A stretch of 64,000 nucleotides of DNA from Takakia lepidozioides (lineage: Eukaryota; Plantae; Bryophyta): NCBI GenBank assembly GCA_030704615.1, contig CM060733.1, positions 74,586,001-74,650,000 of the forward strand, read 5' to 3'. A program made the position numbers and the translations under genes. Position 1 is the first letter of the stretch. Every line of letters starts with the position of its first letter. The notes below the pieces were generated by a model, which saw only the letters and a list, made by a program, of their open reading frames with translations, did no database searches and was not told the DNA's origin. Positions 2,112-48,659 of this stretch are shown in pieces.

Positions 2112-3180
2112 CGGGTTGTTCACAACCTGTCTGACTCAGACGAGGTCATGGAAGTTCCGAGATCGTCCTAGAGATCAGGCAAGTCCTCAATGGACGTTAG
2201 TGGAGGAGGGAGTTATATTCCCAGCACGAGCACCGCAGTTCGATCTATTCTTGAAATTCTGCGAGGGCTTCACCTGGAGGGACATCGGTCGGAGCTGGCC
2301 GGGCTGGACTACATCAAGTTCGCAATTAAATTGGTTACATGCCTTCCCGCCGACGTCGACGGTAATATCTTCTTTGAGTTCCCTCCTCGGGCGGACTACT
2401 CGAGGGCGTCCGGAATGTTGACAGATATGGATAGAAAACATGACGGTCATCCTTGGTGCGTTACCAAAACCACCAGCATGAAGATGCTCGATGGTTTCCG
2501 GTGCGCTACGTTGTTTGTGCGGGCGCGTTGCGGTGTTTCTCCCCAACTTGCTTCCACTTTAAATCCAGAGGTCACAGGAACGAGACCGATTGGATAGGCA
2601 CAGCTCATCAACCATTTCGAGCTCAGGAGAAGGTTCCGAACTCCACATTTAAGTGTGCGCATTGCAAAGAACCACCACACTGCATGTCTGTTTGTAATGC
2701 CAAGCAGTTCTATGTGTTGCACCGTTTCCCTGACCTCACCCGAGCTTGCATACACGTTGGTTCCCATTGTCACAAATTGGCGAGGGGGAACAAAAATGGC
2801 GCCGAATTACCTGTCATGAGGGGACCTATAGCCGCGGAATTCGGCACTATTTTTCGCCAGAGAGACCTATTACCGCGAAATACGTCGCCGTTTTTTCAGG
2901 TTACGGACCCTATTACCGTGAAATTCGGCGCCATATTTGCACATGTCGCTGGGAATTGGCATGAGCGGAAGACGAAATATCATGAGCACAACTGTCAAAA
3001 CTACAATTTTCCCTTCATGGGGCCAAATAATATATTTGTTTTTTCTGACACATTGCATTAAATTAATGTTTTTTATTGTTTTTTATTTTCGAAATTTGTA
3101 CTTCTGCTCATGAAAACCGATTGTCTTACTACTCCGCTCATGCCGCTCATGCCGCTCATGCTCATGAAATAGCTAACCTC
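2112..3180 (+). mobile_element. Internally deleted MULE family B: transposase N-terminal (GCM-like) fragment joined to the right terminus
   Basis: 2112-2790 matches the reverse complement of ~43185-43865 (KHDGHPWC; CAHCKEPPHC; CIHVGSHCH). 2790-3180 resembles the reverse complement of 39838-40200 and ends ...CATGAAATAGCTAACCTC. Confidence 0.85.
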
Positions 3181-4516
3181 GTCTAGGGGTGTTGAATGAA
3201 GCACGCACCCTGTCACACACCATGCACCTAGCCACAAACTGTTGCACCTCTGTATGCATGCCACGCCACCAATACTGCCCTTGTAGTAAACTGTGAGTGC
3301 GTCACACTCCAAAATGCTCCAACTCCTCATGGGCATGCCGCACTAACCGTGCACGCTGTGTGGGGTGAGGCACAATCCTCACCCGACCATCCTCCCACAC
3401 TCGAAGTAGGTGTATCCCCTCCCACTTGAATCTCTTGGCTCGTTGCAGGATCCGATCCCTCTCCCTGGCAGTCACAGTGGCTGCCGTGTCTCTCGTGCGG
3501 AGGTAGTCTAACACAGCCGAATCCTCATGTATATCTCTGGCACCACCTGGCTCATCACTAGCCTCAGGGTCCTCAGACACTCCGTCTACAGTCATCCCTG
3601 TTGTAGGTCCAACCTGACCTCCCGATGCCAAGATACACAAAAATGCAGATGCGTGCCATCCCGGCACCATCTCCTCGTCCGTCTCACCATGCCACCGAGC
3701 TCCAGTGTCATCCTGCTGGCTCATGCATGGATTGCGACAATCCATCCGCATCCCAATTGACCAAACCCGGTCGATGCACAACCTGAAAGTCATACTCCTG
3801 GAGTATGAGTGCCCACCGTGCAAGCTTCCCCGTAAGCTTGTCTGACTCCATCAACCACTTGAGTGGCTGGTGATCCGTGACAAGGGTGAAAAGATTGCCG
3901 TATAGATAGCACCTGAAGTGTGCCACGGCCCACACTGCAGCTAAGCACTCTCCCTCATATGAGCTGTACTTAGCCTCTGCAGCGTTGTTCGAGCGGCTAG
4001 CATAAGCCACTACGAACTCTCTTCCCTCATCATCCCACCTGTGTGAGCACCGCTCCAAGCCCCAACATGCTCCAATCCGTATGCAGCTGAAAGGGACGCC
4101 CCCTGATAGGTTGTCTCAGGATAGGCGCCCAGGTCAACCTCGCCTTGAGCTCTTGAAAAGCTCGTTCCTGCTCATCTTCCCACTGCCACTCCTGGTCCAC
4201 CTTGGTCAGCTTGGTTAGAGCCTTTGCAATGGTACTAAATCCCTTGACAAACCGTCTATAATAGTTTGCCAACCCCATGAAAGCTCGAACTCCGTTCACA
4301 TCCGTGGGGCGTGGAATTTGTGCAATGGTCATTTGTGGCTGAAGCATACTCTCCACCAGAGAGCTCCACCAAACCTGCCTCCCAGAGATCTTGAGTCCTC
4401 ATCTGAATCAAAGACCTCTCCATGTCACTGTATCTATAGGGTCTCCGAAAGATTGGCGTGTCAGTGGCCAACTCAATACGGATCTCTTGACCCTTCAGTG
4501 CTCCCAAGTCCTTCAA
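3181..4516 (-). pseudogene. Gypsy pol remnant: RT N-terminus (catalytic core deleted), RNase H, integrase HHCC zinc finger
   Basis: PIFRRPYRYS...GLVE (RT start) jumps directly to VRAFMGLANYYRRFVKGF. RNase H motifs are LHTDWSMLGLGAVL, VVAYASR..YSSYEGECLA and TDHQPLKWL. The integrase zinc finger reads HAHEELEHFGV*RT...QYWWRGM...RCMVCDR. Confidence 0.9.
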
Positions 4517-4974
4517 ACTGAAGGCAAAGCAATTCCTGTAAGCCCTCAGGAACCGCCGTATACGTCGTCTCTCTCCTCCGGTGACAATGGGTCCAATGTC
4601 AGGCTCCCAATTGTCCTCCGTAACTGCAACCTTAAGTCCAGTGGGCTTAGAGGTAGAGGACGCGTCCAGTGGTTGCTATGTTGCAACCTCTTGAGCAGTA
4701 CTCCCTACCTGTTCAGTCAGTGACAATGCCTCATCCTGCCCCATCATCTTATCCTCAAGGACTTCCTCCACCCGAGAAAAATCCCCAACCTCATCTTTCA
4801 CCGCCACCTTGGCTGCCAACTCCCTCTGAACCTCGAGCACCTCCCACGTGTGCCATGGATGCCTGCACCCCGTGGTCCTCACATACTCGCCCCCACTCAC
4901 TGCCTGTACCATCTCGGTAGGCAGAGAGACCATTGAGGGAAGTGTACTCCGCACTCTACGTTGCTCAGCCATAG

Positions 4975-5915
4975 CCAAGCTGATAATCCAGGTCAAGCAA
5001 TTTGATCCATTGCTTGCCCCACACCTGACGACGTGATGCCTCAGAAAGAGACGACACCGCCGTGGTACCAGTGGGAAATACCCATTGCCCGCTCATGCTC
5101 GTCAGCATTAGGCTCCACTAACTGCTGCAACTGAGCATCCCACAGGAGGCCAGGTCCACTATCCCGGAAAGCATGTGATCCTGGGAAGCTGAGCAGTGTA
5201 GGTAATGCTGCTCGTGGTTGACCCACCTTATTGACCACTGCCAAAGGCGAACGGTCATCGTGTCTAACACGCTGAGACTGCCTCCCTGTGTCCAAAATGT
5301 TATCCACTGTGAGATGTGCTGGCCGCTGCACCCCATCAAATGCACGCTTGAGCAGTGCGGGTGGCATCAAGTTAGTCCACCATAGTCGTGGACGATGAGC
5401 CCGTGACCCCACTGTAGCTGCATCTAGCAACACTTCTGACCCAAGCCACGACCGGACTTGATGCACACTGGCCATCACCCTGGCCCAAGAATCGCCCATT
5501 AGTGGCACATTCTCCAAGATGTATACTGGAGATACAGCTTGATGAATCTGCAAGTGGCGCAAAACCCGCACCATCTCCCAAAACAGACCCGACCTCGAGT
5601 CTCGCAATCCATTGCCATGCCTGGCTGATGAATGCCCTTGGCAGGGGCCACTACCAGATCAATGGAGCCAACCTGCTCCAAATCCTGCGCCCCCAGCAAC
5701 GAAATGTTTGCTGACGAGGCTTGTTGGTATCCACGAACTGCAGACACTGGCAACAAATCAGGGTACTGCTGTACCAACTGAGCAACATGGCACAGTGAGA
5801 CGCGTCGTGCAATCTCATCCTTCTCCACATACAGGTAACGTCGAACTCGTACACCTGCCTACAGCACTGCAGCCAATCCAGTGCTGATCCCGCCAAACAA
5901 GTCCAGAAGGCATGC
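4975..5915 (-). pseudogene. C5-cytosine DNA methyltransferase domain (DNMT3-like) inside Gypsy pol
   Basis: Motif I LLDLFGGISTG (~5905-5875), motif II YVEKD, IDLVVA then PCQG after a frameshift (motif IV, ~5640), motif VI YILENV, motif VIII HRPRLWWTNL, motif IX ERAMG and motif X-like GQAMD. There is an in-frame TAG near 5860. Confidence 0.88.
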
Positions 5916-6249
5916 CTTCATCCGGGCACTACCACACAAGAGGTGTGGTGTCCAATGGTGACAACTGAGGTGGTCCTGGTGCAATCACCACACTCTCCTC
6001 TTCCCCTGACGGTACAAAGGCCTCTACCCAGGCTTGTTGCACCCGTCCATCAGCAGCCTGCTGCAAATCTTTGCCCGTACCCCACAATGGAGTGTGAGCA
6101 ACCATGGCAGGCAACTCCGCCGTACCATGCATGTCATCTTGCTCTGCGGGAGGTGGCACATCCTCTGCATGGGCATTGCCATCCAGCAACTCTCCAGGCC
6201 AACTAACTGCAGCTGTAAAGGTGGCTAGTGTTGGCATCCTGCCCCGCTA

Positions 6250-6811
6250 GGCAGCCGCAATACCTCCAATGAATGTCACAGGGAGCTGTACACGACGACC
6301 CTCCCCTAACTACCATCCAGGCCTATAGGAAGCTGACTCCTCCCAAAAATCCAGGGTGAAGCCCATGGGGTACAACACTGCCCCACCAACCAGGACATCG
6401 TACGAGACGGCGTCTGTCACAATGGCCTTGGTTCGCATCGCTGAACCATCTGTAGGGTGATCCGACTGTAGTCCAATGGCCAACTCATGCCGTGTCATGC
6501 CCCGAGCCTGCTCTGATCCTCCCAGAGATGTCTGTATCTGGAAAAGACAAGGCTCCATATCCGCCTCCATGAGGCCCAAACCTGCACTAGCAGCTCTGCC
6601 CAACATCAGTGGCTGAGCTCCCGAGTCCAACAAGACCCGCAGGCCGGTACTTCTTGCCTGCCGGTCCACTCAAAGTGAAAATGCCATCCTAGTTGTCTAA
6701 CAAGACAACTGCAGGTGTCACCATGGCGCGCTCAAAGGCTGGCCTAGCTGGCAGCTCCGTCAACCTGGCAGCTGCATCTTGCCATGGCGCAGCCGTGGCA
6801 GTCTTGACCCT
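6250..6811 (-). pseudogene. Retroviral-type aspartic protease of the DNMT-carrying Gypsy
   Basis: RVLLDSGAQPLMLG and the downstream YDVLVGGAVL motif. Confidence 0.85.
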
Positions 6812-9215
6812 CAACGGCCAAACGGAAAGAGTGAATTCCGTAGTGAAGCAGATCTTGCGGAATTACGTGTCGGCAGACCAATCAGACTGGGTGGAACACT
6901 TAGACATGGTAGAGTTCTGTTTTAATAACACAAAACACTCCGCAACAGGAGTTTCCCCTTTCGTATTGGTCTATGGAAAAGCACCTTTGGTGCCGACAAG
7001 TTGGGCCGCCCAGGACGTTGAGGAACCGGCAGTAGCGGCAGTACTAGAAGAACGCGAGCGTTTGTTGAAGCTCGCAAAGTACAACATTGCCAAAGCGAGG
7101 AAACGGTATGAAAGGCAGGCGAATCGGAAGCGGAGGGAAGTGAAGTTTGAGGCAGGCACGGAGGTCTGGTTGAACATCAAGAATTTCCGACTACCTCCGG
7201 AAGTGAGTCCAAAACTCGTACCTCCGTATGCGGGACCCTTTCGCATCCGGAAGGTTATGAATGAGGATGTGTATGAATTGGAGCTGCCGGCAAACAGCAA
7301 GGTGCATCCAGTATTTCATGTCTCCCTTTTGAAGCCTTACTTCAAAGATGAAGCGCGTCCGAATCGGCATCAAGTGTTGCGTCCGCCACCTGTGCTGTTG
7401 GATCATGAAAATGAACCTGAGTACGAGGTGGAGGCAGTACTTAAGTCAAGGAGGTTCAAGAACCGAGAAACGGAGTATCTCGTCAAATGGAAGGGCTATC
7501 ATCATGTGGAGGCATCTTGGGTGCGTGCCTCAGAAATGGGAAACGCATCCGAGGCGGTTGCAGTTTTCGAAGGGCGACCTCAAAAGCGGAAGAAGCGTTG
7601 ATGGGGACATCAACCTTGGAGTGTGGGGGGGAGGAAATGCATGCTTAGCCCGGCTTAGCTAGCTCAGGAATCCGATTGCAAAAACTTGTATTGTACAAAA
7701 AATTTGTTATAAAGGAAATGGGTTCCAAATGTTGTGTGTCCTATTTTGTTTGGAATGGTGATGCATGGTGTGGTTGGCTAGTGTGTAGAATGCATGCTAG
7801 CTTACAAAAGAGGGAGAGGTAAATTGGGTTAATCGTGTGTTTGCGCAGTGCCAAAATCGGGTGACTCCCATCCGAGGGGCAAGGAAACATGCGCCTTTTT
7901 TGGGAGTTCACGTGCTAGTGCGCACCTGGCGCGTGCGTGTACTATAATTGCGCTACCGAGGTGGTTGCCTTGTAGTGCGGGCTAACGCGGAAGCTATGTG
8001 CTTCCGTTCACGTACTATAATCGTGTAGCCTCGGACGAAGTCGTAGTGTGGCTTCGACGTGTTCCCGTACCATGCCAGCATTCCAAGACGGACCCAATTG
8101 TAGTGATTGGGGCGCACGGTTGGTTCAAGGTTATTCCTAGTCAAAGGGGGTTCGAGGTGAACCCTTGCGCAAAGTGATGCCAAAAGCGGCATCAGGAGCG
8201 ATCTCAAGCAATGTTGCAGTAAGGCGATTTGATCCTCGGGGAGGATCGTTCCTTGACCTTGAAGAAGGCCAAGAAGAGTGCACTGGGAGGAGCTTGAGAG
8301 GCTCCACCCTGGCCGGGACTTGGAAGAAGTCTGCCGAACTAGCTAGTGGAGAGTAGAGTCAAGTGTGGGGTTTGGTTCTTTGCCATGGGATGCCAAGGTA
8401 CGGAAACAAACTCCTTGATGTGGGACGCCACAACTTGGATGTTCGTTTCTACAAAATGGACAAGTCGATGAGGACATCGACTCCCTGTTGGTAGGGGTGT
8501 GTGTGGCGGCCCTTTGCCTTGAGGGCAGGGGGTCGGGACACATGAGGGGCTGCCCCTATGGTGGGGGCAGCGGCAGCGATAGGTATGGGGGGCTGAAGCA
8601 CCCTTGAGTGCCCAAGGCACTCAAGGAGGCGGAGGCGCTCACTAGGCGGAGCCCCGCACACCGGGTTGCGGTGGCTCCACAAGGGGTGATGGTAGCTTAG
8701 CGGACTTAGTGGGGGTGGCATAGGACTCACCATGGGCGGAGACCTTGTGGTGGGAGTCGTGGGGAGTCTTGGGACTCATCACGGTCCATAGGGGCCGTGG
8801 TGAGTGGGCCAAGACTCACCGCGACTCATCACCGGGAGTCGAGGGTTTTCGTGGTGGTTCGCCATAAAATGGCATGACTGGTTGTGAAACCCCCGCGGAT
8901 AGCTACAGAAGTATATATAGGGAGTAGTAACCCCGAGAACGGTGCAAGCCCGTTGGTGACCAAAAATTAGTGAGGAAGCGAGCGAGCTGGAAAGCGACCA
9001 AAGAGTGGGGAGCTGTTCCGGACTGCCAACTACCAAAGGGAATTCCCGCTGGTTCCAAATCGGTGGAGGGTTCTTTGGGAGTTCAAAGGGGGACCATTAT
9101 GCCCCGGTGAGCAGCCGAAGCTCCAAGTTGGTCCGGCGGCCAGGTTGGGAGTTAGCGCGCATCAAGCTAGCAACTATGACCTGAAGGGGAGCTTACCGAA
9201 GTGAGGTGCGCGACA
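6812..9215 (+). mobile_element. 3' half of a chromovirus-type Gypsy: integrase C-terminus, chromodomain, PPT and 3' LTR
   Basis: NGQTERVN...HSATGVSPF...KLVPPYAGPF...VHPVFHVSLLKPY...EYEVEAVL..YLVKWKGY (6812-7601). A polypurine tract GGGGGGGAGGAAA lies at ~7625-7637. The LTR runs from ~7638 (TG) to 9215 (...CGCGACA), after which the interrupted gag resumes. Confidence 0.85.
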
Positions 9216-9390
9216 CACCAACTGTCGAACTCCTGGATAAAGTCATCCAGCTCAATTGTGCCCACAGCTCCAGAGTACCTACGAGGCCCCTTGGTAGCTC
9301 CATACTCCTCCATGTCGTCCCACAACAATGGCGAATGAAAACTGCACACCTGTTGATGAAGCCTCCGAGTCTGTGTCTGACTCTGCACTA
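9216..9390 (-). pseudogene. gag N-terminal fragment of the DNMT-carrying Gypsy
   Basis: PRRYSGAVGTIELDDFIQEFDSWC resembles the PxxF/YxG...xxxF/W start of retrotransposon gag. Confidence 0.6.
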
Positions 9391-13199: not shown

Positions 13200-16100
13200 T
13201 TTTCAATACAGTCACGGTGATCTTAAAGATCATCTTCTAAATCTGTATCTTAACTCCTCTTATCAAGCCTAATGGCTGTACACTCCTTTGATCTTCTATT
13301 GTTACTGTGAATGGGGCTGGTTTCATGTTACTTAGACCAAGCTTCTGCCTTAATGGTCTGTCATAATAGTCACTCCTGAGCCTCCATCTATCAGTACATC
13401 AGTCAAGTCTGTGCTTCCAATTCTCAATTGGATTACTGGCATAGAATCATCAAAGTCCATGATTGTTTCTCGCCCTTCAGGCTTCACATTATAACTTGTC
13501 ACCTTGCTGTTCAGGTCTGTGTTCTCTGTCACATGAGCAATCTGATTGATTGCTTGATACAGCCTGTGCCTACAATGAGGTGCCACAACCAATAGTTGTC
13601 CAATAGTAATCTCAGCTTTGGACTGGCATATTAGTCCAGCCAAAGTCCCTTCATTACCCTGCACTTGAGCAGCTTCTTGCTTCACTTCATCTTCACCTCT
13701 TCTTCTTTCAGAATCAGAGGAATCTGCCATAGGGATATCAGTATTCTTCTGCATTTCCCTGATGGTATCAGCCACTTCCTTGTGCAGCTCCTTCTCATCT
13801 CTCCAAGCCTCATCATCTTCAGGCACATCACTGCCTTCTTCATTAGCATCTTCTTCCTCATCCATGGGAGGTATTAGTCTAGCTTTGCTTCTGGTAACTA
13901 TCATTGTACTTACTTCTGGTACAAAACATGGCCTAACCATGTGAGCTGCCACTACTGGGCCCTCATTCACAGGAGCTCTCATCTCATTTGGTGTCTGATC
14001 CAGAATGGACAGGCTGCCTTTCGATGTCCTGCCTGGTTACAATAGTAACACAATTCTTCACCATTGGTCCTCGCCCTTGGTCTGCTCTGGGATTATTTCT
14101 ATAATACTGATTCCCTGGCTGGTAATTCCCCCTTGGATTACCCTGATAGTTGCCTCTGGGATTGCCTTGGTAATTCCCTCTTGGATTACCTCTCCCTGCC
14201 ATACCATTGTTATATCCACCAGGCCTACCATAGTGGTCCTGATCATTGTTTCTTCTTGGCTGGGGCTACACTTGATGCACCCTTACTTGCCTAGGTTCTC
14301 TTGCAGCTGTCCTTATGTTGTAATAACAATTCTCAGTAGAATGGTTATCCATTTTACAGATAGTACAATGTTTCTCCTTCATGTGGCATTCAGCTGTGGT
14401 ATGGCCTTCATTCTGGCATTTTGCACACCAAACACCCTTCCTCCAATATGTTGCAGCCTCTGTGGCATACTTCTTCAAGATCTCCTCCAGTCTTTTCTCA
14501 TAGTTTTCCCTCTTCAACTTTTCCTTTTTCTTACTCTTCATCTTGAGCTCTTGCTCTTCTTCCTCATCTGACTCATCTTTAGAGTCATCATCATCGTTTT
14601 TCTCTCTCCTGAGCATTCCCAATTGCTCAATTCTATTCGTTGTTTCAAATGCCTCCTCCACTATATTATGGGGTAGCATATCCACTTTCTTTTGTAATTC
14701 AGGCCTTAGTCCACTCACAAACCAGGTCTTATGTAATCCTGGTGCTGGTACAGCAGCCAGCTTTTTCATCATTAACTCCATCTTCTCCATGTATTCTTCA
14801 ACAGTTTCATGCTTCTTTTGCCTTAACTGTTGTAAACTCCCATACACTTCATCCTCAGTTTTGCTTGTCCTGAACCTATTTTGGAATGCTGTACTAAGGC
14901 CATTCCAGGATAGGAAATGATTATTAGGGAATCTTGTATACTATTCACTTGCTTGCTTGATAAGTGAACAAGGAAACAGTCTCATCTTGGCATCATCGCC
15001 ATTCTCATTGTTCACAATACACATGTTCTCAAATTGGCTGATGTGTACATCAGGATCCCCTTTCCCTGCATATTGGAAAAGGTGGTTTTGCCCGTGTTGG
15101 AGGTACCGTCATCTGTGGCCCACCCTGCCCATTGACAGGTGTTGGTCCTCTTGTTGGTGCTGGTCCTAGAGGACCTACTGTTGTAGTGGTGGTTCTCCCA
15201 CCAGGTGTTGGCCCCTGAGCACTCCCTACTACTGGCCCCACTGTACTCTCAGTACCCCCAGCTCTAGTTGCACTACTTCCCACACTCCATGTCCCCCCAG
15301 AGCCAGATCCAAGCTGCCCGCCTGATCTCCCTAAGCCGACACCTTCGTTCGCCTGTGATCCAAGTGCTCCACTTGATCCAGGTCCAACAGGTTGGGATGT
15401 CCTAGTTGTAGTCTCAACCTCAACTGTTGGGTCTACTTCTTCATACTCTTCATCTTCCAAATTCTTCTCTTGGTTTTCCTCTTCCTCACTCATATAACTC
15501 AACTGGAGTGGTATTGGAGAGTCTGAACACTCTGTTGGCTCTGCCACATCCTCCTCTCCTTGTTTGTCTTGTGATTCAGAAACTGGAGTTCCTGCTTTTG
15601 GTGTCCCATGCCAACTCTGATCAAAGATTTATGTCAAATCTTTAATCCAGGGATGTACCTCAGATCTCTCCCCTCGTGGTTGATCTTCTTCCTCTATCAA
15701 ATCCCTTATCTTTCTTGTAAAGAATAAGAAGGAGTGGCATCCAACTCTGGTTCTTCCGGTATGGGTGATGTACTCTCTGATCTTAATGGTGTGAGAGGTC
15801 CAGATGATTCCCCTATGTCTATTCCTCTCTCCCAAAGATATGGATAATTAGCTTTTTCAAATAACTTTCTCTTTTTGCTGAATATCTATGAAAGTCTAGC
15901 TTCTCTTTCATCACTCATGTCCCATGTCTTTCATATTTTTAATGAGGCAATAACCAAAACTCTCTTCTGTAGTATCTCTCGTATACTGCCTGGATTCTCA
16001 AGCTTTAATGCACCTTGGCTATACTAGACGTCTCGTTACCATATGACCCATATGGCAAGCACGTCTGGAAAGCTGTGTCTTGGTGTAAGTTTGATCCACA

Positions 16101-20435: not shown

Positions 20436-23400
20436 TCAAAGAGAAGTTGGCGGAGCTCCACGCGAGGTGTCCCGCTGTAGAAGGGTGTTCACTTCTCCAT
20501 AGCCTAGTGTGGCTTGGTGGATGAATTGGTCTCTCTTACCGTTGCAACACATAATCACAAGGTATATGTAATATTGATGCTTGCAGGGGACCCACTTCCC
20601 CCTCATGCCGAGAGCGCCCTCACGCATCGTTACAAAGTCCGGACAAGTGCACGAAGGGAAATTCCCGACGGTAACCTGATATTCTTTGCCATGAAGAACT
20701 GACCCAATTGACAGCACTGTGTAAATCCGTCCATACCCCGGAGAAGGGACTTCGGTGATACGAGACACCCGAGCCTGCAAAATTCTAGCAGATTCCATCT
20801 TGCATTCGTGATCTGCACCCAAAGCGAAACGGCGCACTGTTTTTCCATCTCTTTTTGTTGGGTGGGAGTCGGCACAGGGTGGCGGCATTGCCGGAGCATG
20901 TGGCACATCTGTGCCGACAGTGCATGAGGGCACCACCCGGGACCGTGCAAGACAGAACCTCCCTCCTCCAGCATGCTTATCTCGGTTGATGACAGCGACG
21001 TCCCAATTTGCACAGGCCAAATTGCGGGGGGAGGGGGTTTCATTATCACTGAAGGACGAACTGTTCCCTTCACGCATCGTGCCATATCGTCTGGGCAGAA
21101 CCAAAATTTGTGGTCCTTTGACTCCCCACTATGATAAGGTCGGAACAACCCTGTGAATGTTGGAGCTGGAGTCCCCCTGGAGCCTTTGCATATCTTTGAT
21201 TTGCATTTCTTGAATGAGGGGGTCCGAATTGCCATGCAAGCCACTCTAGATCCTGGTGGGGTGCGTTCTATATGCCACTCACTATCAATGCAATCGGATT
21301 CCTGCACCATGGCCACCGCCTCCTCCAATGGGATTCCCGCTGCTGTGCTTGTATGTTCTGCACGTGCTCCACTGGAGGAGGACCCACCTGGGAAGGGGCG
21401 GGCACACGACTCAGTCTGCAGTGGAGACACCTTTGGCACAGAGAAATTGACCCTGTCTGGCCGATGGGAATCTCCATCTGACCCTGGAAGAGTGTTCAAT
21501 TTCCTTTTGCATGATCCAAATCTTTCCTCGCCTTCCAAATGGGGGATCCTGGATTGTAGAGCGGACCCTTCAGTGCATCTGTTTAGAGCTCTGGCCATCT
21601 TTGACGGGACTCCGGACCTACTCGCAGCCCTTAGCATCAACAAAGTCGTATCAGGGCCCTTGCCTCCACCCCGTCCCATCAGAAAATTGCGGTACCTGGT
21701 TTGTTGTGTAAGTGCACGCACCATGTCATCAGCAGTGGCCACATACAAGTCACGACCTGCTTTGGTAGACTGCTGCATCCAGGCGTTGTGAACAGTCTCC
21801 GCCAAATTACAGGATGGCATGTCGGCCAAGTCCTCCAAGGACATGTCCTGCAGGAGGCATTGCATGGATATGTCAGGAACGAAAACAAATGGTAGAGGTT
21901 CTTCAAGTGACAATCGAAGAACCCCAAATGAACAGGCACGATGCAAAATTTCTGTTTTTGGGATTGAAGAGGCTTACCGTCGTCATGAAAGCTCCCCACT
22001 GTCTGTACCTGAAGTGCCAGAAAACCAACCAGTCCTCCAACTCCTTTACGTGGGTACCTGTTGCAGCACCAGAGGAGAACCACCAAGCCCGGATTGCCTG
22101 GTAAGTGCTCTCAGCTTCTCCCATTGAGGTGGCATTCTTGTACTTGAGACAGAGCCTTCTGTGCTCCAACTGCAGGTCAGGGCGAATGCAGCGCTTTGTA
22201 TGACGTGCCAGAGATTGAGTCCAATGGAAGAGGCATGTGCGCTCCCTATTTTCCATTGGGACCTTAGGATCCCCGAACCAAACACGCGTCGCACTGCATT
22301 GAAATTTGCCTGTGCACTATCAGCCATGAAGCCCGCAAAATTTGTGTTTTGTATTCCATTGCGCTGCATGACGGCCAAGAGCGAATTCCACATGAGCATT
22401 TGGGATTCAGTGTCCTCCGACTGCATATCACAAATTGCTATGGAGAGCACACGCTGGTACGCCGGATCATACACATGGCACGCCATGGTTGTCCAACCCT
22501 TCACCCGTTTGCAGTGATCAAACATTAACCAACATTTAGCCAAATCTCCTCCTGGTTGCATACGGCGGACAATGCTCACACCACTGCCTTCGCCCACAGC
22601 GGACATCTTGAACAAATACACCTTGGACGAGCCCTGGCCAGGGAAGATACTGTTTTGAATGAATTCATAGCGACTCCTCCGTTTCAGGTCCATAATGTTG
22701 TCCATGAATCCAGCAGTGCCTGTGCCCATTCTGAGTGCATTCACCTGGTTTCGAATATTGGGAGAGCTCAACAACGGAGAAATGGTCCATGACTGCATTA
22801 AGCGAATCTGCATCCAGCATAAGTTCTGTCGCATCCCCTTCACCCAGTATGTGTTTCTCCAGGAATGCCTTGCTAGCTGCAAGCGCTATAGCAGAAGGTG
22901 TTGCACAACGGGCATTGTGAACTCCTGCTTCAGCAGATTTCTAGCGATGTCCACGCTATCCCTGCAACTTCCTTTGGACACAGGATGCTCGTGTGCACCC
23001 ATATGAATGCAGGCACGAGTCATTGTCTTGCATGGTGTGCCACCTGATACATACGAGCGTGGCACACAGAAACACAGGACGGGGAAAGTTTGCAGAACCT
23101 GCACACGAAAGTATTGGTCCTGGAGGGGCAAGCCCTGGGGTGAAAGGATTCAGGGGCACACCTTCCCACTCACTTTCGTTTGGTTGAGCGCTTTCTCAGG
23201 CGAGGGCAAGAAATATTCTGGCACTTACAATGCCCAACGCAGACTGACCTCCGAAATTTCAAGCCAATGTCGTTATGGATGTTCGACGTTTTTGTCCTGC
23301 ACCAAGGATGTCCGTCATGTTTCTTGTCCATGCCCTGTAAAAGCCCAGCCAGTCCAGTGGAAGAGGTGGGAGGGTTGAGCTCAAACAAGATGTCCCCATC

Positions 23401-24006
23401 AAACTGTGCTGGCACGTATTGAACCCCTTGCACAGGAAGGGACTCCCAGTCAACAAAACGCAGCTCGCTCTTGCACCCAGGCACACCTGCGAGGGCTTTC
23501 AATTTTGGAATGACACTCGTTATCTCTTGCAATTCGTCGTCATCCAATGACGGAGTCTGCACTGGCGGAGGAATCTCAGAAACATCCTCCGAGGACGAGT
23601 CTGAAAGAGTCACGAAGGTAGTGGATGTGCTCACCTCTTGTTTCACAGGAACTGTGCCCTTCTGTTGCACGACCGATGCTGCAGTGCCAGGGGTAACGAC
23701 CGATCCTGCTGATTGTCTTCTCTCTTTTCCAAGGACACGGTATGTGCCTGGAAGGACTCTCCACTTCCTTCCACACTTGCCAACCAATGGTTTCTCCAAG
23801 TGCCCAAAATCCAAATTCCCATCCTCGTCATACACCTCTTTTTGAACAAGGAGAGAACCCAACTCCAGCGGGAACACTGTAACCAGCTCATCCTCATGAA
23901 CAACTGCAAACCCATCGTCGTCTGCAGTGGTAGTCAGTGGAAGAGTACCTGCATTGGAATGGAATCGAGCAAGTGTATCTCGCTCCCTCGACATGTTTTC
24001 CCTCAC
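20436..24006 (-). pseudogene. MULE transposase family A: GCM-like zinc domain, DDE core, SWIM finger (introns ~23172-23100 and ~21977-21848; frameshifts)
   Basis: GCM-like region KKHDGHPWCRTKTSN..RRSVCVGHCKC..CIHMGAHEHP. DDE core WLMFDH (D1), FMADSAQA (D2), CLFHW (CxxH) and CNLAETVH (E). SWIM finger PSCTCPDF...PCKH. Confidence 0.88.
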
Positions 24007-25098
24007 TGAACGAAAGTTGCGGAATCCTCAAACTGATAGCCCGCAATTACCGAAAGGGGAATTAAGACAAGCAAACCGAGGTCAACAAGGCTAGCTCCAA
24101 TCCAAAGGTTGCAGGTGATGCATGCAAAGGATGTAGGGATGAGATGCACCTTCACTTCGAAAACAGCAACGCCAAGAGGCACTAACCAGAAAAACTGTTT
24201 TCAAATACTACAAGAAGCCGTGCTGTTTATGGATGAAAACAAACACTGAAAACGACATGAAACCATCCATTATGAAAAGACGGCAACAACCCTGGAGAGC
24301 AGTAAACAGGAAGACCACAAATGTCATGAGGTTGTGCTGTGCCAGAAGAGCACAGCACAAACACTGACACTGCAGAAGATACCTCGCACGAATGCGTGCC
24401 AGACATGGTCGTATCCGACAGAACCCTTTATGCCGAATGACCCCATGGCGACGGTAACGGTAAACTGCAAACCACAGGGTAGGCAGTACAACACACGTGG
24501 ATGCATATGTGAAGCATAACAATTATTGCGGATCTGCAAGAACTGCTCGAAAATGAACTAGCATTAGATTTCTACGGCACATCCGAATTTGAAAGAAAGC
24601 AAGAAGGCCGCGGTGTATTGGCAGGCGGCGCAGTACATCTGACATATATCGCTAGTGCATGCAACGGATGTACTTTTTTCTTGCGCTTTATTGCTTGGAT
24701 AATACGGAGACGACGGAATGGATGAATTCCGTTCGCACACAATAACAACACCCTCATCCAAAATATGGTTGATAACGTCCAATTTGATTTTGGTTACATG
24801 CCATAGCAGCACTTGTTACAAACGTCAAACTGGAGAGCTCTAGAGGCATCGTGGGGAGCCCTTGTTTCCAGCGTAGGAGGAAGAGAAGGAAGTCACTATA
24901 CTTCACGAGCTCTAGAAACAAGAATAGAGCCAGAGATAGAATGAGGATGGAAAGAGTGGACGAAGAGGAAAAGGAGGTAGAAGAGGGAGTAGAGGAAAGT
25001 GTGGCGATGGAGGAGCAGGAATCAGCAGAAGAACAGCAGCCCGCCATAGTTCCAAGGACAGATGAAGAGGACACCGCATCTGAGGAGAGACAGACGAG

Positions 25099-31448: not shown

Positions 31449-32387
31449 GGGGGCTGCTATTTCATGAGCGGCATGAGCATGAGCGGAAAAAAAAAAAGCA
31501 TGAGCAGACCATTGTAAGTCCACGGAAAATAAGGTCATGTGAAGTTGGAATGTGGCACCAGTGGACTTGAAATGCAACATTTTATTGCATTTACTTGCCG
31601 AAAATGGCTAAGTCCCAGATCTGACTAGGCCCGGAACTGGAAAAATAACGCCGAATTTCCGATTTTGGTGCCAGTCAGATCTGGGACTTAGCCATTTTAG
31701 GCCCCGAACTAGAAAAATGACGTTTTTTTATTTGTTTTTTTTTTCGGTGCCATTTTACCAGTTCGGGGCCGAAAATGGCTAAGTCCCAGATCTGACTGGG
31801 CCCGAAACTGGAAAAATGGCGCCGAATTTCCGATTTTGGTGCCAGCCACCCTAGGGACTTAGCCATTTTCGGCCCCGAACTGGAAAAATGGCGCCATTTT
31901 TCCAGTTCGGGCCCGAAAATGGCTAAGTCCCAGATCTGATAGGGCGCGGAACTGGAAAAATGGTGCCGAATTTCCAGTTGCGGTTCCAGCCATCGTAGGG
32001 ACTTAGCCATTTTCGGGGCCCGGAACTGGAAAAATGGCGCCATTTTTCCATTGCTAAGTCCCAGATCTGACTGGGCCCCGAACTGGAAAAATGGCGCCAT
32101 TTTTCCAGTTCGGGCCCGAAAATGGCTAAGTCCCAGATCTGATAGGGCGCGGAACTGGAAAAATGGTGCCGAATTTCCAGTTGCGGTTCCAGCCATCGTA
32201 GGGACTTAGCCATATTCGGGGCTCGGAACTGGAAAAATGGCGCCATTTTTCCATTTCGGGGCCGAAAATGGCTAAGTCCCAGATCTGACTAGGCCCCGAA
32301 CTGGAAAAATGGCGCCGAATTTCCGATTTTGGGTGCCAGCCAGATCTGGGACTTAGCCGTTTTCGGCCCCGAACTGGAAAAATGGCC

Positions 32388-32428
<41 letters not shown>

Positions 32429-35400
32429 CCGGCGCCATTTTTCCAGTTCGGGGCCTAAAATGGCTAAGTCCCAGATCTGACTGGGCCCCAAACTGGAAAA
32501 ATGGCGCCGAATTTCCGATTTTGGGTGCCAGTCAGATCTGGGACTTAGCCGTTTTCAACCCCAAACTGGAAAAATGGCGTTTTTTTTTTTTTTTTTTTTT
32601 TTCGGCGCCATTTTTCCAGTTCGGGGCCGAAAATGGCTAAGTCCCAGATCTGACTGGGCCCAGAACTGGAAAAATGGCGCCGAATTTCCGATTTGGGTGC
32701 CAGTCAGATCTAGGACTTAGCCGTTTTCGGCCCCGAACTGGAAAAATATCGTTTTTCTTTTTCTTTTCCCGACGCCATTTTTCCAGTTCGGGGCCGAAAA
32801 TGGCTAAGTCCCAGATCTGACTGGGCCCAGAAATGGAAAAATGGCGCCGAATTTCCGATTTTGGGTGCCAGTCAGATCTGGGACTTGGCCGTTTTCGGCC
32901 ACGAAATGGACAAATGGCGTTTTTTTTTTTTTTTTTTTTTTTTTGCGGTTTTTTTTTCGGCGCCATTTTTCTATTTCGGGGCCGAAAATGGCTAAGTCCC
33001 AGATCTGATTGGCACCAAAATCGGAAATTCGGCGCTATTTTTCCAGTCATGCAGGTAATTCGAAGAGCGGATGGATGGAAATCCGGCGCCGGATTTCCAT
33101 CCGCCAGGTAAGTCGGCGCGCAAAATTTCTGTCATGCAGGTAATTCGAAGAGCGGATGGATGAAAATCCGGCACCGGATTTCCATTGATCCGCTCTTCGA
33201 ATTACCTGCATGACTGGAAAAATGGCGCCGAATTTCCGATTTTGGTTGCCGGTCAGATCTGGGACTTAGCCGTTTTCGGCCCCGAACTGGAAAAATGGCG
33301 TTTTTTTTTGTTTTTTTTTTCGGCGCCGTTTTTCCATTTCGGGGCCGAAAATGTCTAAGTCCCAGATCTGACTGGCACCAAAATCGGAAATTCGGCGCCA
33401 TTTTTCCAGTCATGCAGGTAATTCGAAGAGCGGATGGATGGAAATCCGGCGCCGGATTTCCATCCGCCAGGTAGGTCGGCGCGCAAAATTTCCTTCATGC
33501 AGGTAATTCGAAGAGCGGATGGATGAAAATCCAGCGCCGGATTTCCATCGATCCGCTCTTCGAATTACCTGCATGACTGGAAAAATGGCGCCGAATTTCC
33601 GATTTTGGGTACCAATCAGATCTGGGACTTAGCCGTTTTCGGCCCCGAACTGGAAAAATGGCGTTTGTTTTTTTTTTTTTTTTCCGGCGCCATTTTTTCT
33701 ATTTTGGGGCCGAAAAAGGCTAAGTGCCAGATCTGACTTGCACCAAAATCGGAAATTCGGCGCCATTTTTCCAGTCATGCAGGTAATTCGAAGAGCGGAT
33801 GGATGGAAATCCGGGGCTGGATTTCCATCCGCCAGCTAGGTCGGCGCGCAAAATTTCCGTCATGCAGGTAATTCGAAGAGCGGATGGATGGAAATCCGGC
33901 GACGGATTTCCATCCGCCAGGTAGGTCGGCGCGCGAAATTTCCCTGAAGAAGGTAATTCGGAGGCGGATGGATGGAAATCCGGCGCCGGATTTCCATTCG
34001 CAAGGTTGGTCGGAGAGCGGATGGATGGAGATCCGGCGCCGAATTTTCATCCAGCAGGTAAGTCGGATCGCTGGCGTATGGATATTCGGCGCCGAATTTC
34101 CATTCGCCAGGAATTTCGAAGCGCTGAATTACCTTCCTGCGGGTAATTCTGATCGATGAATTACCTTCCTGCAGGTAATTCTGAGCGTGTCCGATTGATT
34201 TTTCGGATTTTTCTTGGAATCCTTCACTGCTAGAGGCAAATCGGACCAGCCTCGGACGGAAATTCGGCGCCGTTTTTCCATTCTGGGAGGTTTCTACGAC
34301 TTCCTTTGAGGGGGGCCCCGATGGAAATTCGGCGCCGAATTTCCATCCGGGGGATGGTCTCTGTCGGAGAGGTGCCGGCCTCTCCGCCGCTCTGTTGGAT
34401 ATTCGGTGCCGAATTTCCGTCCAGGGGTTGAAATATGACGGCCAGGTGCTGGCCTCTCCCCCCTCCCCGACTGCATTGGAACGGCCCCGGATTGAAATTC
34501 GGCGCCGTTTTTCCATCTGGGGAGGTTTTTATGTCGACCAGTTTTCGGTCTGATCCCCCGACACGACTTCCTTTGGGGGGCCCGGATGGAAATTCGGCGC
34601 CGAATCTCAATCCAGGGGATGCTCTCTGTCGAACACGTGCCGGCCTCTACGCCCGAGGCGACTTCATCCAGGCGTCCCCTGTTGGATATTCGGTGCCGAA
34701 TTTCCATCCGGGGGTTGAAATGTGACGGCCAGGTGCCGGCCTCTCCCCCTCCCCGACTGCATCCGAACCGCCCCGGATGGAAATTCGGCGCCGTTTTTCC
34801 ATCTGGGGATGTTTTTATGCCGGCCAGTTTTCGGCCTGACCCCCCGACACGACTTCCTTTGGGGGGGCCCGGATGGAAATTCGGCGCCGAATCTCCATCC
34901 AGGGGATGTTCTCTGTCGCACACGCGCCGGCCTCTGCGCCCGAGGCGACTTCATCCGGGCTTCCCCTTTTGTATATTCGGTGCCGAATTTCCGTCCGGGG
35001 GTTGCAATGTGAGGGCCAGATGGCGGCCTTTCCCCCGAGCCGACTGCATCCGAAAGGCCTCGGATGGAAATTCGGCGCCGTTTTTCCATCTGGCGATGTT
35101 TTTATGCCGGCCAGTTTTCGGCCTGACCCCTCGACACGACTTCCTTTGGGGGGGCCCGGATGGAAATTCGGCGCCGAATCTCCATCCAAGGGATATTCAC
35201 TGTCGCACACGCGCCGGCCTCTGCGCCCGAGGCGACTTCATCCGGGCTTCCCTTGTTGTATATTCGGTGCCAAATTTCCGTCCGGGGGTTGTAATGTGAG
35301 GGCCAGATGGCGGCCTTTCCCCCGAGCCGACGGCATCCGAAAGGCCTCGGATGGAAATTCGGCGCCGTTTTTCCATCCGCGGAGGTTTTTATGTTGGCCA

Positions 35401-35930
35401 GTTTTCGGCCTGACCCCCCGACAGGACTTCCTTTGGGTGGATCCGAATGGAAATTCGGCGCTGAATTTCTATCCGGGGGATGTTTTCTGTCGGACAGGTG
35501 CCGGCATCTCTGCCCCAGACGACTTCATCCGTGCGGCCCCTGTTGGATATTGGGTGCCGAATTTCCATTTGGGGGTAGTAATGTGACGGCATGGTGCCGG
35601 CTTCTCCCCTTCAGCCGACATCATCCGGACGGCCCCCCACTTTCTGACTGCATACCGTTGGCAGTTATTGCGCAAAGATCAGGGGCCGCATTCCGGAGAC
35701 AAGGTTCATTAACACTCTGACTGTGGATTTTTGAGATAGTTGGCTCCCTGGATTTGGATCAGGCTTCGTCGCTCGGACAAATCGGCACCGCATTCCTTCC
35801 CATCGCTGCATCCCCCTTCTATCAGGGAGCTTCCCCGCACGCCATCCTGGCAGTCTTGTGTGCACATCTCCCATGGCGGAAAACCCGAGCGCTACAGTGT
35901 ACTGCCCTCCTCACGAGCATAGAGCTTCAT
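31449..35930 (+). mobile_element. Left part of a MULE family B element: terminus, ~4 kb of palindromic tandem arrays, start of transposase
   Basis: Terminus GGGGGCTGCTATTTCATGAGC plus CATGAGC repeats. 35640-35926 matches the reverse complement of 44220-44505 and encodes RHPGSLVCTSPMAENPSA.VYCPPH.HRA, the transposase N-terminus. Confidence 0.85.
31600..35640. repeat. Compound tandem arrays (~180-bp, ~90-bp and 287-bp units) built on GGCGCC-centred palindromes
   Basis: Perfect palindromes include GGATGGAAATCCGGCGCCGGATTTCCATCC (33073-33102), GATGGAAATTCGGCGCCGAATTTCCATC (34320-34347) and GGAAAAATGGCGCCATTTTTCC. A 287-bp period is visible at 34586/34873/35160. Confidence 0.95.
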
Positions 35931-38850
35931 TTCAAGCCTGAGGGCAGTATGGCGGAGGGCTACGTGTTTGACGAGGCATTGGGATTTTGTACAGAGTACT
36001 TGTCTTCTATTGATGCTACTAGGCGGAGAGTGTGGGATGCAGGAGAGGAGGAATCAGTGTCAGGCTGGGTATTGGAAGGAGTTGGTCGACCACGGAGGTT
36101 GACCCTCGAATTGTTGCAGCTTGTCCACGACTACGTCATTCACAACCATCCCAGTTTGAGCATTATGTTGGGGTAAGTGGCAAACGTTCTGGTACCTTAT
36201 GCTTTGTATAGGTGTGTGTGCAGTAGTTCTTCCATCGGCTGCAGGGGTTGCACTAGATAAATTTCTGTGGTTGTGCGTGTGTTGGCAGGTCCTATGAGGT
36301 GGAGAAATGCAGGTTGGAGACTGAAAAATGCTACTAACCAGAACAAGATCCGTGCTCTCCCTCACTTTGCAGAATGGCTGGTAAAAGCAGTCCGCCAGCA
36401 TGTGTCAAGTGTTGCCAACCATGCTACTGATTCAGCCTGCAAGGAATTGTTGGACATGTCCAAACCCCCATCAGTAATCGCAACATCATACAAGAGCATG
36501 TCGGCTTATGGAAACCACTTCAGGGTTACTTCAGATGGACTCAACAGCCCCTTTGTGACATATGACTCGGGGGTCTCTACTGTTTTCCACCATGACAGTA
36601 CTTGCATTGACCGTGAGCAGGTGGTGAAAAAGCGTACGGTATGTGGGTGTCATAAAGGAGATTTTAGAATTGGATTATGGCTCCACAAACACCACGGTGC
36701 TATTGTGTTCATGGGTACGTGCACGACGTGTGGGCTCTCAGCCCGTGTCAATGAAGCAGGACGAGTCTGGCTTCACGTTGGTGAATTTCTCCCACTTGTT
36801 GCCTCCACTTGAACAGCCTTTTGTGCTCCCATCACAGGTCGAGCAAGTTTTTTTCTCTGAGTGTGTGAATGAACCGAGATGGAACGTGGTGCTGGAAAAA
36901 AACCCCAGGTCACGCAGGGCTGTTTCTGATGTGAGCATTTGCAACGATGATATTGCAAGTGTATCAGGCCTCTTAGCCCCCAATCACATTGAAGAGACCA
37001 ATGTTGCTAGTGACAGGGTGGGCCAGACCATCCAAGTGACACCTGAAGAGGTTGCTTCACTTTACAGAGACATGCGATCTGAGGAAGCACATCCATGTCC
37101 CACGGAGGACAGTTGCGATGGAGATTCAGAGTCCAGTGATGAGGAGTTGGTTGATGTGGATGTGTACTAGTACCTAGAATGAGGTATGACTTTCCCCCCC
37201 AAACTGCCTTCCTCTATCTCAAGTATATGAAGGGTGGTATTGGGCAAAATTGAATATGTAATCCCGGTTGATTCATGAATAATGTGGGATTCATAAGACT
37301 GGCACTAAGGGTTGCCCTTGGGGGTGTCCTTTTTGCAGGGTGTTGGAGGTGTCCAACTTACATGGCGTGTCTGTCTGGCAACGTGTCATGACATTTATGT
37401 CACTATAGACTTTGGAACGGCATGCAAATTTACACATCAGTTCTGCCTTTGGGTACATTGTTGACAAAGTGCATGTGCCTTCCAGTTTACATTACATAAT
37501 TGCCCCAGTGATTTTGTGGGTCTTATATTGGGCAGGCTCGTGTTTATGGACCATTGAATACCAATGGAGTGCTTTTAAGCTTGGTCCCTACTTATCATAT
37601 TTTCATTTTTCCCTAAAAGAATCTAACAATCCGCATAGATGATGCTCTGGCTGGTTGAGTGGGTTATTTGCGTAGATGCATTTTATGGTCAGTTTCTCTT
37701 ATGCCCCAGCTAACACCATGTGACTCACTTGTATAGTCCCCCATCTATGAATGGCTCAAGCAGGGTGCAGTACATTCAACACTACAATGTTGCTGCCCTG
37801 CAGGTGTTCCATGCCTTGCACCACATCATTATTCCCTGATGTCATCCTGCTGCTGTTCTAGCTTTAGGTAGGTCATTGGGGATATGTACATTAGAGAGAA
37901 CAACATGAGCTGTTATCTCAGTTGTTTTATCATACAAGAAGCTGAATTCATGGGCTCTCCCATTCTTAGAAAACCCCCCCATGGCAAAGTGGGTGGATCG
38001 GAACAGACCGTATTGCCAAGCTTCTATTCCAGTAGCACACGGCGTGGAGCTCCGGGATGGCCTACTACAGGGACGACATGCACAAGGCGATATGTTAGAG
38101 TGTATTGGATTTCATATTTTGTTGGTGTTCTTGGTCACTGCCCAAAGACTTTTGTTGAGCCCATGTTTTGCATCACTCTCATGAGTGAATTTTTTGATTT
38201 GCATGAATTTATCTATCCCCTGAATGCATCATTTGTTCGTCTGTCATTCCGCAGTATGAGGCTTGCTTTTGATGTTGTCGGCGATCAACAAACACTAAAA
38301 TGCACGCCGCCATTTGAACGTAACGTCACAAACAGATGCGGTTCCAGATCGCCTCTCTAGCATGTTGGCTTCACGTTCCATTCTTCTCCACAAAGCGCCA
38401 ACGGCCTACTAAGCTGCTTCGTGTGCAACCGTTCCCTTCACTTGCATCCCCCGCACCACAATATCAAAGCCACTTAACCAATCATATGTAGACACCTCAT
38501 AAGTTGTTCCATGTCACAGACTCTCCATGTCATGACGACATGTGATGATCTGGCAGAATACATTAGAGTGGCAGTCATGAAGTCATATGTCCGTCTAGCA
38601 ATATGCACACGTCATTCACATATGGGCATGACCCTGACTGGCAGTCATATCCACCATGGCAATATTCCTGGTCAAAGGGTGTTTGACCTGTGTTGCGCAA
38701 AGTTCGGAGTGATACAGTCGCATAACCGGCTTCGTCGTGATCTATGTTATGACTTCAAAAGGCATTTACCACTGCAAATGGCATTTCTGCCACAAATTGG
38801 TCGTGACTGCGCACCCATGGGAGTCATAAAAGCCGCAATGTGTTGTAGTG
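35930..38850 (+). mobile_element. 3' part of a CACTA/EnSpm transposon
   Basis: KPEGSMAEGYVFDEALGFCTEYL (DUF4218-like) and GVIKEILELDY..LLCSW...PFVLPSQVEQVFF..W (DUF4216-like). It ends ...TGTGTTGTAGTG at 38850, the reverse complement of CACTACAACAC. Confidence 0.85.
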
Positions 38851-44825: not shown

Positions 44826-45020
44826 GCGAGACGGATTGGACAGGCGCAGCTCATCAACCATTTCGAGCTCAGGAGAAGGTTCCAAACTCCACATTTAAGT
44901 GTGCGCATTGCAAAGAACCACCACATTGCATGTCTGTTTGTAATGCCAAGCAGTTCTATGTGTTGCACCGTTTCCCTGACCTCACATTAGCTTGCATACA
45001 CGTTGGTTCCCATTGTCACA
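44826..45020 (+). pseudogene. Short family B transposase fragment (GCM-like zinc region)
   Basis: ETDWTGAAHQPFRAQEKVPNSTFKCAHCKEPPHC...CIHVGSHCH, matching 2580-2775. Confidence 0.85.
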
Positions 45021-48620: not shown

Positions 48621-48659
48621 CGCAGAGAGACCTTGTTTCTTATTTCCGACGATAGTTTT

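Follow-up and report, generated by a model that had tools for sequence, protein, structure and literature searches.

Why retrotransposons carry an enzyme that silences them has been an open question since 2018, partly because the known hosts, Symbiodinium and Klebsormidium, are difficult experimental organisms and the enzyme of the Gypsy element gave no signal in yeast. The same question is raised by the window, the whole 64-kb stretch of Takakia lepidozioides DNA analyzed here, in which a decayed C5-methyltransferase (DNMT; PF00145) lies on the minus strand (5912–4958) between the protease (PR) and the reverse transcriptase (RT) of a Ty3/Gypsy element. Does this domain belong to the family of the element, how would it be made, and on what would it act?

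Anatomy and decay of the copy in the window

A six-frame reading of positions 3150–6720 located, in order on the minus strand, the protease motif LDSGA (6630–6616), DNMT motifs I (LDLFGGISTG, 5906–5877), II (YVEKD, 5831–5817), IV (PCQG, 5646–5635), VI (ENV, 5514–5506), VIII (RPRLWWTNL, 5394–5368), IX (EHERAMG, 5100–5080) and X (GQAMD, 5019–5005), and the start of RT at ~4609. This is the full set that a sequence-only reading of the locus had named on the pol strand between protease and RT. That reading had also made its assignment depend on the PF00145 profile, which was matched by the longest open DNMT piece (5041–5655) with 32.2 bits (E 9.7e-8) against a Pfam cut-off of 22; two other pieces of the DNMT region, scanned singly, had no Pfam match. 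The following features were assigned, RH and INT denoting RNase H and integrase.

9215–9313, minus strand: Gag N-terminus, first ~33 codons of ORF1 (tblastn of Marchantia P0007/P0002 residues 5–34, 93% identity, 9304–9215; ATG at 9313)
6806–9214, plus strand: unrelated chromovirus remnant with integrase C-terminus, SH3, chromodomain and probable LTR (Pfam SH3_Tf2-1 and Chromo in ORF 6693–7601)
6271–6805, minus strand: end of the Gag-PR spacer and aspartic protease, LDSGA at 6630–6616 (one frame break near 6641; Asp_protease_2 weak, E 0.03, below cut-off)
5913–6270, minus strand: protease-DNMT linker, conserved in relatives (continuous tblastn match of 6639–5911 to P0007 residues 634–881)
4958–5912, minus strand: DNMT3-like C5 cytosine methyltransferase, motifs I–X unrearranged (PF00145; one stop, several frame breaks)
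4679–4957, minus strand: ORF1 C-terminal tail, open, ~93 codons (sequence; 31 of 100 homologous protein records end 50–170 residues past the DNMT)
4670–4678, minus strand: ORF1 stop TAG followed by CAA CCA (CAR-YYA readthrough consensus), in frame with RT (sequence; kept in related loci)
4334–4669, minus strand: ORF2 start and RT N-terminus (tblastn, 73% to P0006 residues 696–786)
3729–4328, minus strand: C-terminal part of RT and RNase H, after the RT-core deletion (Pfam RT_RNaseH, E 1.6e-28)
3181–3736, minus strand: RH-INT linker and integrase zinc-finger region (tblastn to L071 ORF2 residues 498–672; other repeat DNA resumes at 3181)

The copy is dead. The sequence-only reading had said as much on the grounds of a stop, a frameshift and a deleted RT core, and the damage exceeds that description: the DNMT region has a stop at 5861–5859 and five frame breaks in or near it (near 5911, 5646, 5075–5079, 5020 and 5003), ~550 bases of the RT core are absent at 4328/4334 when measured against a sibling contig, and truncation at ~3181 leaves the copy without the INT core, the PHD and the 3' repeats. 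The chromovirus remnant stands in place of the missing ORF1 residues ~35–578, the gap in the tblastn cover of P0007, and the label of LTR for its end is a probable one. In contrast to the elements around it, the remnant is without CpG depletion in its coding part (o/e 0.99). A candidate 5' end at 10266, a 6-base match that is one of three in 2.2 kb, was rejected, and no second copy of the element was found in the 64-kb window.

Identity of the methyltransferase and its place in the element family

The DNMT of the window is 73% identical to that of Calypogeia (P0001) and 70–73% to those of Marchantia (P0002/P0007) over ~315 residues, with X at the breaks. An intact homolog (P0004; 71% identity to the window domain) was used for sequence and fold comparisons. 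In sequence it scored highest with human DNMT3A (48.4 bits), followed by DNMT3B (40.6), DRM2 (23.9), HaeIII (22.8) and HhaI (19.4), a tRNA methyltransferase being a far weaker match than the DNMT3-family DNA enzymes. Its predicted fold (pLDDT 79.7, pTM 0.83) had DNMT3A as the best Foldseek match (E 1.1e-17), and 36 of the 36 matches listed were DNMT3 structures. In the ESM Atlas a streptophyte cluster and two phage C5 methylase clusters scored alike (all 0.96), giving no separation. By homology and predicted structure, then, the domain of this family is DNMT3-like, as the form of motif VIII had led the sequence-only reading to say. The rearranged motif order of plant DRM is absent, motifs I to X being linear in the window copy, and Pfam found no DUF3444 on P0007 or on ORF1 of L071.

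Conservation of the domain is high, with the catalytic Cys kept in 90 of 95 aligned domains and the motif VI Glu in all 95. Ka/Ks of the DNMT ranged from 0.10 to 0.17 in five between-lineage pairs, close to the 0.09–0.19 of the protease, four of the five low values resting on near-saturated Ks (> 1.4); for the L069–L071 pair the value was 0.13 at a Ks of 0.26. Two close decayed copies (L003 and L007) gave 0.88. Between lineages, the DNMT domain is shown to be under purifying selection.

When the 204-residue DNMT piece was used as query among longer proteins, 36 of 1656 candidates matched, and the 19 matches with species names were all bryophytes (15 Marchantia, 2 Calypogeia, 2 Sphagnum). A Marchantia domain as query matched 87 of 7998, adding Closterium and Monoraphidium, with fish DNMT3B as the weakest match. 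Among viral contigs there was one weak match among 60 pattern matches. The sequence-only reading had proposed that genome-wide matches be checked for protease and RT flanks. In the best 80 of 153 confirmed metagenome stretches, 54 of the 57 loci long enough for the check have a protease upstream of the DNMT, and 57 of 67 have RT downstream. These 80 loci come from eight assemblies and are mostly near-copies of a single Sphagnum-type family, so these counts are not independent. The domain order in related loci is Gag-PR-DNMT-RT-RH-INT, and the Ty3/Gypsy order of Gag-PR-RT-RH-INT is present in both the window and related loci. Of the first 100 protein records, 31 end 50–170 residues past the DNMT and 16 fuse it to RT or RH; in another 34 it stands between RH and INT, and the remaining 19 are truncated or arranged otherwise.

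Sequencing runs of the same species also contain the domain. The DNA runs X1, X3 and X5 cover 30 of 30 bins, DNMT included; X1 and X3 are from the same sample, and X1 may be the source sample of the window. In X1, 39,194 contigs fall on the 3.6-kb stretch of the element, most at 90–99% identity, a depth that is not a copy number. Run X9, guessed to be RNA, covers 24 of 30 bins, five of the six empty bins being within the DNMT, which has no bearing on expression. One sibling contig of 2173 bases (record 25) links the end of the DNMT, by way of the stop and a complete RT core, to RNase H. A secondary insertion into a single copy, which the sequence-only reading had allowed for, is not what the related loci show.

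Quick maximum-likelihood trees with SH-aLRT as their only branch support were built from chosen rows rather than all matches (50 and 63), with fish DNMT3B (P0100), the sole cellular DNMT included, as outgroup of the DNMT tree. The window copy groups with Calypogeia, Marchantia and Sphagnum-type rows in both (SH-aLRT 100 for DNMT, 99 for RT-RH), and the congruent DNMT and RT trees fit a long joint inheritance. These results confirm that the DNMT is native to a Gypsy family whose close relatives include elements of liverworts and peat mosses. The proposed DNMT-Gypsy lineage in land plants stands on the same position of the domain in relatives, on the congruent trees and on purifying selection. 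That a host DNMT3 fragment or other insertion was caught by one copy and has no role in the family can be dismissed as extremely improbable: the copy is heavily broken and does contain one foreign insertion (6806–9214), and RT downstream is absent in 10 of 67 testable loci and protease upstream in 3 of 57, but the DNMT has the same position in liverwort, peat moss and Closterium relatives, the trees and the selection argue against such a capture, no introns were seen, and the domain is without the DUF3444 given for host bryophyte DNMT3 in the text of PMC6453930.

The records with the DNMT between RNase H and integrase (RT-RH-DNMT-INT-PHD; P0035, the 34 records of P0054–P0099, and P0163) form a sister group, a clade of its own in the DNMT and RT trees, whose named members are the chlorophytes Monoraphidium and Haematococcus. 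Since this is a separate clade, the domain has moved to another place in the element during the history of the lineage. No mention of this arrangement was found in the text of de Mendoza et al. (2018; PMC5890265). RT relatives just outside the DNMT group (P0188, P0191, P0195, P0206) carry Dam (PF05869) instead, and resemble what a 2026 preprint (10.64898/2026.05.21.726589) in its text terms DAM-LTRs. Calypogeia fissa has a second RT (P0179), which groups with the fused DNMT-RT P0151 and apart from the stop-bearing clade; judged from these groupings, there may be two DNMT-Gypsy lineages in liverworts.

The stop codon between methyltransferase and reverse transcriptase

The sequence-only reading had placed the DNMT on the pol strand between protease and RT, to be processed from the polyprotein. 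The position was upheld. The domain is, however, no simple part of Pol: it ends ORF1 (Gag-PR-DNMT) and is followed by an in-frame TAG CAA CCA and then by RT. Decay as an explanation of this TAG (4678–4676) was rejected, a stop at the same site being conserved across related loci.

The stop was surveyed in 61 rows with both a DNMT and an RT start (60 loci and the window). It was found at the anchored site in 52 of these (37 TAG, 15 TAA), and 47 of the 52 have the context CARYY behind them, which in these loci follows only 9 of the 705 premature stops; the full CARYYA is present behind only 6 of the 52. The nine rows without an anchored stop comprise five with TAG CAA CCC a few bases off, two in which TAC replaces the stop (the decayed loci L035 and L060) and two that are disrupted. 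The window and L004 have TAG CAA CCA, L069 and L071 TAG CAG TTA, and L073 TAG CAA TCA. The commonest context, that of the Sphagnum-type copies, is TAG CAA CCC ATG, which misses the last consensus base and has an AUG directly behind. A sibling contig (X9-25) differs from the window at 37 positions over 4560–5048 and at none over 4670–4678. CAR-YY is kept in five lineages while the residue of codon 2 varies (P, L, S), which points to a signal at the nucleotide level. The window itself, with TAG CAA CCA, has the TMV-type signal of UAG and CAR-YYA with the next ORF in frame.

The frame is kept through the junction, with a short gap, in 45 of the 61 rows. The intact locus L071 has an ORF1 of 1369 codons (protease, DNMT), then TAG CAG TTA, then 1047 open codons (RT, RH, INT, PHD), and L073 has the same ORF2 behind TAG CAA TCA. 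A usable AUG before RT is absent from the window, from L071 (first Met at 117) and from L004 (48); L073 has a Met at 14. The stop is not universal: within the same RT clade of 19 rows, the transcript-derived P0103 is stop-free over 64 residues upstream of RT, and P0084 has the DNMT fused to RT. Five junction folds, made without a shuffle control, gave no sign of a common RNA structure downstream. In the same uncontrolled folds the stop is part of, or enclosed by, a short hairpin in the window (4673–4690) and in L004, a different one was seen in L071, and L073 had none.

With CAR-YY(A) behind the stop and the frame preserved across it, RT-RH-INT-PHD is probably made by readthrough. In the text of PMC2194720, CAR-YYA alone is enough for readthrough in TMV, and readthrough in MuLV is put at ~5%. 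The elements compared there (TMV, MuLV, SIRE1, Tca2) likewise have an in-frame stop between two ORFs, with CAR-YYA in TMV; in those the stop splits gag from pol or pol from env, whereas here both a protease and a methyltransferase are upstream of it.

The same two ORFs could also yield RT-RH-INT by splicing, with the TAG serving as the 3' splice site, or by translation restarting at an AUG close by, and the DNMT would still be made at the level of Gag. We regard this as unlikely. A TAG doubling as a 3' splice site occurs in two-ORF Ogre-type elements, and the Sphagnum-type copies have a T-rich run before the TAG, which is acceptor-like, and an AUG 7 bases past the stop. Six gene-model records, five from Marchantia and one from Sphagnum, join the DNMT to RT or RH. 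Three Marchantia models that were compared, however, join at three different points, none of them at the TAG, which looks like avoidance of the stop by the gene finder. The frame maintained over the junction, the conserved bases 3' of the stop and the lack of an early AUG in the window, L004 and L071 also speak against splicing or re-initiation. On the other side, Tca2 as described in PMC2194720 shows that an in-frame stop need not mean simple readthrough.

Possible role of the enzyme and comparison with known systems

Under readthrough, most ribosomes would halt after Gag-PR-DNMT and a few would continue to give RT-RH-INT-PHD. The DNMT would then be made at the level of Gag because it ends ORF1, upstream of the stop, and it would enter the particle in Gag-like amounts and be freed there by the protease. 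Co-packaging and protease release would follow general Ty3 biology. In the particle the enzyme could methylate the newly made cDNA of the element; this is reasonably likely, with CG as the probable site, by analogy with SymbioDIRS-Dnmt3 of Symbiodinium, which methylates CG de novo in yeast according to the text of PMC5890265. New copies would arrive pre-methylated and quiet, doing less harm to the host lineage, or their naked DNA would be hidden from host surveillance; this benefit is the least certain step and a best guess. The model as a whole (a Gag-PR-DNMT ORF1, a leaky stop, and Gag-level DNMT in the particle that likely methylates new element DNA) is held on balance, with modest confidence.

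A footprint of self-methylation was sought in CpG depletion, with o/e values of 0.51 for the element, 0.99 for the chromovirus remnant and 0.11 for another Gypsy element of the window without a detected DNMT; such a footprint is indistinguishable from host methylation, and the 0.51 of the element is not special.

That this footprint cannot be separated from host methylation leaves room for an enzyme that is active, or binds nucleic acid, with a target other than cDNA: host chromatin or rival elements in the nucleus, RNA of the element, or, as a decoy, the partners of host DNMT3. Output at the level of Gag seems more enzyme than one 9-kb cDNA would need, and the text of PMC5890265 both reports no activity of the Klebsormidium enzyme in yeast and raises RNA methylation and host-benefit models. 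We consider such a target rather doubtful, given motifs IV (PCQ) and VI (ENV) and best matches that are DNMT3-family DNA enzymes; fusion to Gag would moreover keep the DNMT in the particle beside the cDNA, and in the 34 of 100 related records with DNMT between RH and INT its neighbors are again particle proteins.

The ends of the element were read in 11 loci of the Sphagnum type, in each of which both were detected. The element starts with TGTC and finishes with GACA, and its repeats are arranged as A-coding-B in eight loci and A-coding-B-A-B in two, one being cut by a contig end. Target duplications are exact 4-bp repeats in seven loci, agree at 3 of 4 bases in two, mismatch in one and are unreadable in one. 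The internal B-A junction is a short palindrome, found also 3' of ORF2 in L071 and L073. Two full direct LTRs of the ordinary kind, the first reading of the A-A repeat, were rejected in favor of split ends in the relatives; split ends are a feature of the relatives alone, the window copy having no 3' end. A split repeat layout that is DIRS-like was found in L045 and L068.

A fuller history is more speculative: an old green-plant Gypsy lineage, living on in chlorophytes, Closterium, liverworts and mosses, may have retained a working DNMT3 over hundreds of millions of years. Its bryophyte branch may have put the enzyme under a leaky stop, so that every particle would be loaded with methyltransferase, and methylated cDNA may be closed at the B-A palindrome, cut there by integrase and inserted pre-methylated with split ends. 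If this were true, it would amount to epigenetic self-marking at birth, and to a source of de novo methylation in bryophytes untouched by mutants of the host genes.

The sequence-only reading had pointed to a retrotransposon-borne DNMT in Klebsormidium, and this is documented in de Mendoza et al. (2018; PMC5890265), whose text has a Gypsy-borne DNMT3 in K. nitens only (KnitGypsy-Dnmt3; a streptophyte Gypsy-DNMT3 in the text of bioRxiv 10.64898/2026.05.21.726589). The word "Marchantia" has 0 occurrences in the text and searched supplements of PMC5890265. By that text, KnitGypsy-Dnmt3 is likewise of the Gypsy type and carries a DNMT3-like domain that is unrearranged and subject to purifying selection, and the legend of its Fig. 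4c describes DIRS-like repeats with Gypsy domains, as in L045 and L068 here. The catalytic residues are conserved in both, and a Ka/Ks below 0.2 in the Gypsy coding region is seen here between lineages, against 0.88 in one close decayed pair. The hosts differ, being land plants here (Marchantia, Calypogeia, Sphagnum). In the text of PMC5890265 the DNMT is in the Pol ORF and was acquired in the K. nitens lineage, whereas here it closes the Gag-PR frame before a conserved stop, in a lineage that spans bryophytes, Closterium and chlorophytes. The K. nitens RTs P0139 and P0161 fall with the present family in a broad RT group of 35 rows (SH-aLRT 91) and in one of 54 rows (99), and neither is tied to KnitGypsy-Dnmt3. 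The absence of methylation by the Klebsormidium enzyme in yeast is deemed inconclusive by its authors in the same text.

SymbioDIRS-Dnmt3 and SymbioLINE-Dnmt, as described in the text of PMC5890265, are also C5 methyltransferases carried by retrotransposons; these are tyrosine-recombinase or LINE elements and represent independent capture, whereas the present family has a DDE-type integrase and 4-bp target duplications. Phygy (REXdb; Neumann et al., 2019) is, in the text of PMC6317226, a bryophyte non-chromovirus Gypsy of ~8.6 kb with 4-bp target duplications, NCGN targets, tRNA-Trp priming and no extra domain listed. As Phygy is known by this description, membership was rejected on target sites, NCGN being present in 0 of the 7 exact duplications here. 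The host genes PpDNMT3a/b (Yaari et al., 2019) share a DNMT3-type catalytic domain in seed-free plants; host DNMT3 genes have a C-terminal DUF3444 in the text of PMC6453930, whereas the element domain has none and is inside a retrotransposon ORF.

A literature search, with most subscription journals outside its coverage, returned no land-plant report of a DNMT-Gypsy and none of its stop. Later papers (PMC12344493, 10.64898/2026.05.21.726589) refer in their texts to "streptophytes", where no land plants were found named, and figures or supplements of the 2025–2026 papers from the de Mendoza laboratory may include bryophyte rows. No description of the family was found in the texts of PMC9033089, PMC11982613, PMC6317226, 10.1101/363937, PMC12885004, PMC7466625, PMC6453930, PMC9940879, PMC11244446 and PMC10952607. 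Gypsy-borne DNMT3 is published for algae, and the present family is a well-supported variant with a land-plant range that includes a model species, a Gag-linked position before a likely leaky stop, and split repeats. The placement of the stop predicts an unusual stoichiometry, with a methyltransferase at the level of the capsid. Close relatives are annotated as "hypothetical" genes in Marchantia polymorpha (e.g., Mp_4g09160, Mp_8g17980), and since this is a genetic model the question becomes testable. In the text of 10.1101/363937, TEs lose their repression in met mutants of Marchantia. Copies of this kind can also inflate DNMT gene counts in bryophyte annotations.

Elsewhere in the window, another Gypsy-like gag-protease region (Retrotrans_gag) at 13350–15630 is very strongly depleted of CpG (o/e 0.11). 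Several copies were seen of a transposase-like element that has SWIM-type zinc fingers (2110–2791, 20436–24027, 40683–44384, 44827–45023, 46668–48628), and the majority of its ORFs are without a Pfam match. A further transposase-like region (35721–37170) contains DUF4216, and we take it to be CACTA-like. Tandem arrays at 1–1390 and 31600–34150 are built of ~180-base units, with inverted repeats inside the unit and with runs of poly-A. A PP1-like serine/threonine phosphatase exon at 62421–63212 (Metallophos, E 3.5e-49) is the only host-like gene seen among the window ORFs of at least 150 codons.
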